In this document: positions 12,072-12,843 of the stretch, piece by piece
How the letters are laid out: each line of letters opens with the position of its first letter
Position numbering within the stretch: the stretch's first letter is position 1
IMG/VR virus record: IMGVR_UViG_2534681940_000040
Length of the DNA: 21,195 nt
Origin: a virus
Taxonomy: Duplodnaviria > Heunggongvirae > Uroviricota > Caudoviricetes
Direction: 5' to 3' (one strand)
The notes under the pieces: generated by a model
The model's input: only the letters and a program-made list of their open reading frames with translations
What the model was told of the DNA's origin: nothing
The model's database searches: none
Position numbers and translations under genes: made by a program

Positions 12072-12077
12072 AAAGAA

Positions 12078-12107
12078 AAAGCCATCGACAGAAATATCGA
12101 TGGCTTT
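12078..12107. terminator. bidirectional terminator hairpin between convergent genes
   Basis: 11-bp perfect stem AAAGCCATCGA / TCGATGGCTTT with 8-nt loop. A-tract on one side gives a T-run on the minus strand. Confidence 0.6.
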
Positions 12108-12114
12108 ATGTACT

Positions 12115-12687
12115 CTATTTATACAATACAACACCACTCTTTTTAGTTATATATGTGCAGTTTGATGGTATATCTTTATTTATAAAAGACATTGCACCTA
12201 TTTTTACATTATCCCCAATTTTACGTGATAATCCAATGATGCAACAATTAGCTCCGATATCAACGTTACTACCAATTTTTACTCTTGAACTAGGCATATC
12301 ACCATCTATCTGTCCAATGGTAGTATTCTGTCGTAATACCAGATTTTCACCCGCATCAACAGCAAAATGAACAACAATTCCAGCATGATGGGGAATTGTC
12401 AACCCTTTTCCAATATTTGCGCCCAATCCTATTTCACAACCAAACTTGTTAATTATTTTACTGTTTAACTTTTTGGCTGCTTTCTTATGTAATTTATTAC
12501 CATTAATATACATTTCGTTAGCCAACCGCCACCAGAAAAGGAAATTCCGGTTACGCTGTTTTTTCTCTCTTAAAAGCCTCCAGATATCCATACGTTTCCG
12601 CCGAATTACTTCATGTTTCCAGAAGTTTTTTAAATTAGTAGAGTTTCCAAATAAAACAAAGTGAATTGCCATTAAGTAAGATAGCAC
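12115..12687 (-). CDS. hexapeptide-repeat (left-handed beta-helix) acetyltransferase, CysE/WcaB-like
   Basis: Hexapeptide repeats GCEIGLGANIGKGLTIPHHAGIVV...IGSNVDIGANCCIIG...IGDNVKIGAMSFI. Start taken as GTG 12687 with SD AAGGAG 6 nt upstream; the ORF track's 12720 is also GTG. Strongly AT-rich. Confidence 0.8.
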   Translation of the reverse strand: MLSYLMAIHFVLFGNSTNLKNFWKHEVIRRKRMDIWRLLREKKQRNRNFLFWWRLANEMYINGNKLHKKAAKKLNSKIINKFGCEIGLGANIGKGLTIPHHAGIVVHFAVDAGENLVLRQNTTIGQIDGDMPSSRVKIGSNVDIGANCCIIGLSRKIGDNVKIGAMSFINKDIPSNCTYITKKSGVVLYK

Positions 12688-12738
12688 GATAATCTCCTTA
12701 ATTATTATTTCAGACCACACATGTTATAAGGTTAAGAG

Positions 12739-12767
12739 ATTATAAAATCCTGTTATTTGTTATTCAA
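12739..12767 (-). promoter_or_regulatory. sigma70-like promoter for the acetyltransferase moron
   Basis: On the minus strand: TTGAAT, 17-bp spacer, TATAAT (RC of plus 12762-12767 and 12739-12744). Confidence 0.45.
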
Positions 12768-12843
12768 AAACAATTTTCTGAGAAGGACATACAACAGCAA
12801 GTCGCCAGTCACCTTCATCAGGAAATTGGCGACATACGTTAAA

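Follow-up and report, generated by a model that had tools for sequence, protein, structure and literature searches.

What does a tailed phage gain from a gene that databases call serine O-acetyltransferase? The question is raised by a 21,195-nt stretch of Caudoviricetes DNA (IMG/VR virus record IMGVR_UViG_2534681940_000040, here called the window), which carries such a gene on its minus strand between a fibre-assembly gene and tail genes. The gene is common and already annotated phage cargo: we found it in 530 of 5426 complete Escherichia coli genomes (~10%), under this name and nearly always at full length, in strains including O157:H7, O111 and O104:H4; the copies are mostly chromosomal, with 66 on plasmids. 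It is sacF in the P1-like phage-plasmid JL22, whose description says that why it is there 'is still unknown' (PMC9603915). We find that the substrate implied by the database name is very probably wrong and, on balance and judging from genomic context, we favour a lysogenic-conversion gene whose product O-acetylates a sugar in one of the envelope glycans, the lipopolysaccharide (LPS) core being the most probable.

The preliminary description of the window had assigned the protein to the CysE/WcaB branch of the left-handed beta-helix (LbH) acyltransferases, and both its predicted serine acetyltransferase (SAT) fold and its leading family matches (EpsC, cysE and WcaB) support this. Membership of the superfamily is indicated by the hexapeptide repeats and by the predicted structure: the AlphaFold model (mean pLDDT 95.7) has N-terminal helices followed by short beta-strands throughout the hexapeptide-repeat region, and its best matches among solved structures are serine acetyltransferases (TM ~0.73), as are the best PDB sequence matches. 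Pfam Hexapep matched at E = 2.1e-5, below its gathering cut-off, the SATase N-terminal domain was not among the Pfam matches, and the PHROG match (2154) is to a family of 'unknown function'. Every curated NCBIfam equivalog cut-off was missed, whether for EpsC, the best match (76.2 bits vs 150), CysE (TIGR01172, 62.4 vs 210.65; PRK11132, 36.6 vs 397), the two WcaB models (55.8 vs 196 and 54.4 vs 194.65), LacA (31 vs 347) or Maa (21 vs 314); NeuD and WbbJ also scored lower than EpsC, cysE and WcaB.

We aligned the protein with CysE and WcaB of E. coli MG1655 (25% and 31% identity, respectively) and surveyed residues over 87 family members. Position 85, which corresponds to CysE D143, is acidic (D or E) in all 87, and His100, the counterpart of CysE H158, is kept in 86; with the catalytic pair so conserved, an active enzyme is likely. 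In serine acetyltransferases, structural work has established the roles of D92, P93, D157, R192 and H193 in binding serine or cysteine. The D92/P93 region is absent from the window protein, the D157 position is Pro and varies across the family, and R192/H193 align to Ser-Arg inside a ten-residue hypervariable loop (126-135) with indels, a loop that fits varied sugar acceptors. The protein is also short (190 aa vs 273 aa for CysE), ends in ...VVLYK rather than ...GDGI, and has neither the full N-terminal helical domain of CysE nor its CysK-binding C-terminal Ile tail. Since the catalytic pair is kept while the serine-binding residues are lost and the acceptor loop is hypervariable, the protein is likely an active acetyl-CoA-dependent O-acetyltransferase with an acceptor other than serine that differs between family members, a pattern typical of sugar-decorating enzymes.

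Which sugar might be decorated is suggested by the neighbours of homologues, of which a search returned 336 at E<=1e-5 (the best 120 of the 336 are 41-97% identical to the query). In Leminorella grimontii the homologue (48% identity, bearing the family motifs FWWR, IRQNTTIG and GAMSF) is the last gene of an operon waaP-waaB-waaI-waaY-waaZ-acetyltransferase that faces waaL, and these waa neighbours pass NCBIfam equivalog cut-offs. A WaaZ-like gene lies directly upstream of the homologue in a Halomonas metagenome-assembled genome; the order in Halopseudomonas is msbA, WaaP-like kinase, acetyltransferase; in a Pseudomonas locus a GT2 glycosyltransferase gene abuts the acetyltransferase gene and waaP stands at the locus edge; and the Intestinirhabdus homologue adjoins ugd and genes with arn-operon-like domains. 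Glycosyltransferase partners occur in prophages as well: in Xenorhabdus bovienii prophages the acetyltransferase gene is followed by one for a GT25 'LPS biosynthesis' glycosyltransferase, the pair lying between integrase and tail fibre, and in a Morganella prophage of the same type it is followed by a GT9 heptosyltransferase-family gene. More distant LbH relatives are found in clusters rich in GT2/GT4-type glycosyltransferase genes. In none of the loci examined did cysK or cysM stand beside a homologue. A genome-wide locus scan returned mostly distant LbH genes among the matches listed and was unusable for frequencies.

Strains of the unrelated O-antigens O157, O111, O104:H4 and O22 share alleles of at least 96% identity. 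This spread over unrelated serogroups speaks for a target that is conserved and against a specific O-antigen, and together with the waa, GT9 and GT25 neighbourhoods it makes a conserved glycan of the envelope the favoured acceptor, the LPS core first among the candidates. Pairwise ratios of nonsynonymous to synonymous divergence (dN/dS) were 0.02-0.17 in comparisons with alleles at dS 0.12-1.8, and by this measure the acetyltransferase family is under purifying selection.

Two further settings of homologues were noted. On enteropathogenic E. coli (EPEC) plasmids of EAF type (loci L014-L018, 4243-5594, bfp region), a homologue of 50% identity lies beside a 157-aa resolvase/invertase-like gene, whose family similarity is marginal (E = 9e-5, just under the Pfam cut-off), a hint that an invertible-fibre module of a phage was the source of the plasmid copy. 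In a Salmonella island (L187/L188) a homologue of 62-64% identity is next to an integrase, and a second, unrelated hexapeptide acyltransferase of 208 aa is encoded ~4 kb from it, at 10333-10959.

Is the gene in the window equipped to be expressed on its own? It and its signals are placed as follows.

12115-12687, minus strand: gene for the 190-aa SAT-fold hexapeptide-repeat acetyltransferase (WP_000954203.1, PGAP name 'serine O-acetyltransferase'), GTG start
12694-12699, minus strand: Shine-Dalgarno sequence AAGGAG, 6 nt 5' of the GTG, read from the sequence and kept in four lineages
12739-12767, minus strand: sigma-70-type promoter TTGAAT-17-TATAAT (-35 at 12767-12762, -10 at 12744-12739; 10 of 12 matches)
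12068-12107, minus strand: intrinsic terminator with a 13-bp stem (12107-12078), 4-nt loop and T-run (-21.3 kcal/mol, z = -3.9)

The open reading frame (ORF) program listed 12115-12720 (minus strand, 201 aa) from a more upstream GTG; the 190-aa version begins at the GTG at 12687-12685, a start backed by conservation, as P2-like copies begin VLSYL or MLSYL and P1-like copies have ATG at the same codon. The promoter scan by itself was at chance level, with four sites found and 4.4 expected. The promoter is credible instead because its elements are conserved in a divergent lineage, L009, where -35, -10, leader, Shine-Dalgarno sequence and GTG are essentially identical over a coding sequence of 74% DNA and 71% protein identity. 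Rfam gave no structured RNA in the conserved 5' leader at gathering thresholds, and no tandem repeats able to give phase variation were found in the gene. The terminator sits between the convergent stop codons of the acetyltransferase gene and the fibre-assembly gene. Thus the minus-strand ORF, its GTG, AAGGAG and promoter, all claimed beforehand, are present in the sequence, as is the terminator, though with 13 stem pairs where 11 had been reported.

The composition is foreign. GC of 12072-12770 is 0.328, vs 0.509 for the whole window and 0.50 for the flanks, which makes this module the AT-richest when all 699-bp segments of the 21 kb are compared (minimum at 12071); third-position GC is 0.28 in the acetyltransferase gene vs 0.56 in that of gpU. 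The earlier view of a self-contained, AT-rich cargo gene (a moron) accordingly stands, with its own promoter and terminator, deviant composition and absence from P88 and related deposited phages. A second AT-rich patch lies at ~1000-2050 (minus strand, GC 0.34-0.41) beside the integrase gene; it contains a DUF2511 gene and a hypothetical gene of 216 aa and is possibly a further cargo region.

Where the gene sits depends on the prophage around it. By its nucleotide matches and gene content, the window is a degraded P88/Xuanwuvirus-like prophage of the P2 family in E. coli O157:H7: many O157:H7 chromosomes are 100% identical to it over the 1.8 kb surrounding the gene, and among deposited phages its tail genes are closest to those of P88 and other members of Xuanwuvirus (96-97% identity). 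Its counterpart in strain FRIK944 is flanked by yecA and a tRNA-Leu/Cys/Gly cluster. The annotation there runs, in order, integrase, regulators, replication endonuclease, ParM/StbB pair, truncated IS3-family element and tail-fibre-assembly gene (tfa) in the first half, then 'serine O-acetyltransferase', gpU, frameshifted tape-measure gene, E', E and tube gene, and ends with a sheath gene split by IS1203 and a D gene cut by IS30. We take this prophage to be the element named CP-933T in EDL933. The immediate neighbours of the gene in the window are these.

11539-12071, plus strand: tfa, P2 G-like tail-fibre-assembly gene (Pfam Caudo_TAP, E = 3e-40)
12801-12833, minus strand: hairpin GTCGCCA...TGGCGAC just 3' of the gpU stop (-24.1 kcal/mol, z = -3.9)
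12844-13338, minus strand: gene for tail protein gpU, last of the inverted FI-U operon and upstream neighbour of the acetyltransferase gene (Pfam Phage_P2_GpU, E = 1.5e-38)

With tfa on one side and gpU and the tape-measure gene on the other, as identified by Pfam, the location between a fibre-assembly gene and the tail module is as previously described. The further claim, that this is the slot where P2 carries Z/fun, holds on one flank only. In the P2 record fun(Z) has G and FI as its neighbours and converges with G; the acetyltransferase gene is likewise convergent with a fibre-assembly gene, but its other neighbour is gpU and not FI, because the P88-type lineage natively carries the FI-U operon inverted. 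The order in P88 is V W J I H G, then G'/H' on the opposite strand, invertase, U-T-E'-E-FII-FI on the opposite strand, and D. The G-U junction of P88 thus holds an invertible fibre segment and its invertase, where the window has the acetyltransferase gene. In position, then, the slot is analogous to Z/fun and not identical with it. The same gpU-acetyltransferase-tfa-fibre order is found in IMG/VR prophages of P88 type that are apparently complete (contigs of ~34-37 kb). The matches of P88 and its deposited relatives cover the gpU/tape-measure part of the query and not the acetyltransferase part. The hairpin after gpU probably ends the tail operon and keeps late transcription out of the cargo gene; at this position in L009, a GC-rich inverted repeat of another sequence can be read by eye in the alignment. 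The acetyltransferase gene is therefore bracketed by terminator-like structures. Upstream of it, the tape-measure gene (13345-16184, minus strand) consists of two overlapping ORFs of 278 aa and 708 aa, and PGAP marks the frameshift.

The gene does not travel alone. We clustered 80 viral loci into 14 clusters at 90% protein identity. A convergent tfa lies within 150 bp in eight of the 11 clusters having enough downstream sequence, an association that holds to 45% identity, and a tfa-like or fibre-like match lies within ~4 kb in 13 of the 14. The sacF of JL22 is the same gene, with 91% DNA identity over window positions 11538-12686 (tfa plus acetyltransferase gene); there the acetyltransferase gene lies between tfa and U, beside cin, at a site that we take to be the invertible C segment. 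Homology with the P1-like copies stops exactly at the start codon (12686), homology with loci L071 and L080 runs to 12769-12771, at the edge of the -35, and P88 homology resumes at 12838. The ORF upstream in L071 looks, from its sequence, like the host protein phosphatase gene pphA; if that identity is correct, the acetyltransferase gene is at a prophage end there. HP1-type fibre genes precede it in another clade. Beside the chromosomal homologues of 41-52% identity (L102-L115), a BLAST panel of fibre and tfa proteins had no match. In phages the link with tfa is kept over P1-like, P2-like and lambdoid backbones, which suggests that the acetyltransferase gene and the 3' part of tfa have spread among them as a unit.

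Two observations concern tfa itself. An Rfam IS009 match at 11836-12034 (plus strand, 191 bits vs a gathering threshold of 117) lies wholly within the 3' half of the tfa coding sequence, in the same conserved part that travels with the acetyltransferase gene, and perhaps reflects conserved coding sequence to which an RNA family model responds. In L009 (5617-7244; also in L010, L011 and L013), a gene for a 222-aa SAM-dependent methyltransferase lies between a tfa fragment and a full tfa, adjoining the acetyltransferase gene, and is possibly a second decorating enzyme in the same slot.

On the reading that we favour, the acetyltransferase would be expressed in the lysogen from its own sigma-70 promoter, insulated by the upstream hairpin and the downstream terminator. 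As a cytoplasmic, acetyl-CoA-dependent SAT-fold enzyme it would acetylate an LPS-core sugar during assembly, at the inner face of the inner membrane, and the product would decorate the cell surface, a case of lysogenic conversion. The LPS core is the receptor of P1-, P2- and Mu-type fibres, so masking of the receptor may be the rationale of the fibre linkage; the benefit would be an altered receptor for phages with LPS-core-binding fibres of these types. A bolder proposal, which we put forward tentatively, is a portable cassette of fibre tip, chaperone and receptor-masking LPS-core acetyltransferase that would make the lysogen refractory to phages with related fibres, keep released virions from being trapped by debris, and move among P2-like, P1-like (including the invertible fibre segment) and lambdoid phages. 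If so, it would define a family of uncharacterised cytoplasmic LPS-core O-acetyltransferases that also occurs in waa operons of some Enterobacterales. LPS-core acetylation, if true, would make this gene a widespread means, carried by prophages, of modifying a molecule that is both a major phage receptor and a ligand of innate immunity, would bear on phage typing, phage therapy and host-range prediction in enterohaemorrhagic E. coli, and would account for the gene's travelling with tail-fibre cassettes.

Several points weigh against LPS-core conversion. The prophage carrying the window gene is defective, and the E. coli copy stands alone in its prophage, with no partner glycosyltransferase. Homologues in Obesumbacterium, Rahnella, Pantoea and Orbus occupy uninformative chromosomal spots, and one homologue is on the EPEC EAF-type plasmids. 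Near-identical acetyltransferase alleles stand beside different fibre tips, so the fibre linkage may in part be a by-product of hitch-hiking on the 3' end of tfa, which is conserved and prone to recombination; for the same reason the idea of an allele matched strictly to the specificity of the adjacent fibre went unsupported and was set aside. Literature on the family, on the CP-933T acetyltransferases and on LPS-core O-acetyltransferases of waa clusters yielded no functional study.

Among the alternatives, an O-antigen- or capsule-specific O-acetyltransferase like NeuO of prophage CUS-3, changing serotype or virulence, survives as an unlikely reading. Phage-borne LbH enzymes that O-acetylate polysaccharides do exist (NeuO; PMC3046976), putative acetyltransferases are common in Klebsiella prophages (PMC13123978), and the distant LbH relatives in GT2/GT4-rich clusters also speak for it. 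What counts against it is the near-identity of alleles across O157, O111, O104:H4 and O22, and that the informative neighbourhoods are of core genes (waa, GT9, GT25) and not of O-antigen or capsule genes. Of the conversion enzyme first proposed for this locus, the surface-polysaccharide role is thus the best supported part, whereas the O-antigen or capsule target is made less likely by the serogroup spread and the core-gene association. The comparison with NeuO likewise serves as an analogy of concept and not of kinship: the 47 sequence matches in PDB at E<=1 include no structure of NeuO/MAT type, and a tandem repeat that would allow phase variation was not found, so we rejected a NeuO-like phase-variable enzyme.

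A further alternative is a silent passenger of the O157:H7 prophage, which would have survived decay by chance and would owe its link with tfa to hitch-hiking on the tfa 3' end. The state of the prophage lends this some weight. We regard it as defective because the tape-measure gene is frameshifted, the sheath gene split, D cut, the head genes deleted and tfa 5'-truncated. The insertion sequences involved are as follows.

10469-11538, minus strand: truncated IS3-family element, IS629/IS1203-like (Pfam rve and HTH_Tnp_1; PGAP 'frameshifted; incomplete'; ALIL pseudoknot)
18797-20010, plus strand: full IS1203, splitting the sheath gene
20161-21195, minus strand: IS30, cutting gene D

The IS629/IS1203-like end, as read in the sequence, abuts tfa at codon ~15, and ~15 codons of tfa are lost together with its start codon; this insertion and the adjacent deletion took out the head, baseplate and fibre genes up to that codon. 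The ALIL frameshift pseudoknot is present in both IS3-family copies. Besides the wreckage, a passenger would fit the single acetyltransferase allele beside different fibre tips and the near-invariant sequence in the O157:H7 clone, an invariance owing to which selection cannot be assessed there. It fits poorly with ORF, promoter, Shine-Dalgarno sequence and terminator all being intact, with strong purifying selection in the family, with a promoter conserved across lineages, and with full-length copies in nearly all of the 530 carrier genomes, and we think it improbable.

Still less probable is an anti-phage defence gene or a xenobiotic-inactivating acetyltransferase in a variable slot of a P2-like phage, an option raised in the preliminary description. 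In its favour, the position is analogous to that of P2 fun(Z), which blocks T5, and P2-like phages do have defence hotspots (PMC9122126). Yet PADLOC gave no match at E<=1, no CatB/Vat xenobiotic acetyltransferase family appeared among the 25 NCBIfam matches shown of 29, and the neighbours of homologues are LPS genes. Acetyltransferases are unmentioned in both hotspot papers on P2-like phages, and the hotspot of Rousset et al. (PMC9122126) holds old and tin and, in about one-fourth of P2-like phages, a plasmid-partitioning system. By our reading of the P2 map the old/tin site is a different locus, occupied in the window by ParM/StbB, and we rejected it as the acetyltransferase slot. This partition pair (ParM/StbA and StbB, 9172-10513, plus strand) is directly 3' of the P2 A-type replication endonuclease gene. 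Elsewhere in the early region (5344-5541, plus strand), isrK (63 bits) and C4 antisense RNA (78.5 bits) have matches side by side upstream of a 'derepression protein' gene, which suggests a P1/P7-type antisense immunity module.

Weakest is the earlier option of a metabolic paralogue, here a genuine and, through its missing C-terminal tail, feedback-insensitive CysE raising the supply of O-acetylserine and cysteine in the lysogen: the PGAP name, the best sequence and fold matches in PDB and the kept Asp/His pair point that way, but curated scores (62 vs 210.65 bits for TIGR01172, 37 vs 397 for PRK11132), the lost D92/P93, D157 and R192/H193, the length of 190 aa and homologues located in LPS and other glycan loci, away from cysK and cysM, make it very improbable, and we rejected it on scores and residues.

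How, finally, does the gene compare with known systems? The protein resembles CysE in having a helical N-terminal part followed by a hexapeptide-repeat region, and in the catalytic Asp-His pair; it differs in being without most of the N-terminal domain, D157, the R192/H193 loop and the C-terminal regulatory tail. ORF4 of the Citrobacter rodentium prophage phiNP is alike by its annotation 'serine acetyltransferase'; a survey of prophages in that species lists 'serine acetyltransferase' as putative fitness cargo, with no tests (PMC6456863). The JL22 sacF differs from the window gene in its upstream region, its ATG start and its place in the tail-fibre region next to cin. Closer in type are WcaB (colanic acid O-acetyltransferase) and EpsC, which are also small cytoplasmic LbH enzymes of the SAT branch and have the 'HH' catalytic motif and IRxxxTIG repeat in common with the window protein. 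It is related to them and not an orthologue, being far below their equivalog cut-offs; it has in addition an N-terminal helical region of ~45 aa with the family-specific FWWR motif, and its gene is phage-borne and, in E. coli, outside any polysaccharide gene cluster. As cargo, the gene is like P2 fun(Z), which is non-essential, immediately follows the fibre-assembly gene G and is convergent with it; fun(Z) is larger (15675-17261 in the P2 record, ~1.6 kb), is annotated as blocking T5 growth, and is flanked by FI where the acetyltransferase gene is flanked by gpU. NeuO is an enzyme of the MAT/LacA branch, with phase variation through heptanucleotide repeats. Oac of Sf6 is a phage O-antigen acetylase, and Oac-type enzymes are integral membrane acyltransferase-3 proteins. 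The window gene has no such repeat and no NeuO-type structure among its PDB matches, and resembles NeuO of CUS-3 (PMC3046976) and Oac alike in concept, as a temperate-phage acetyltransferase that would decorate the surface polysaccharide of its lysogen.

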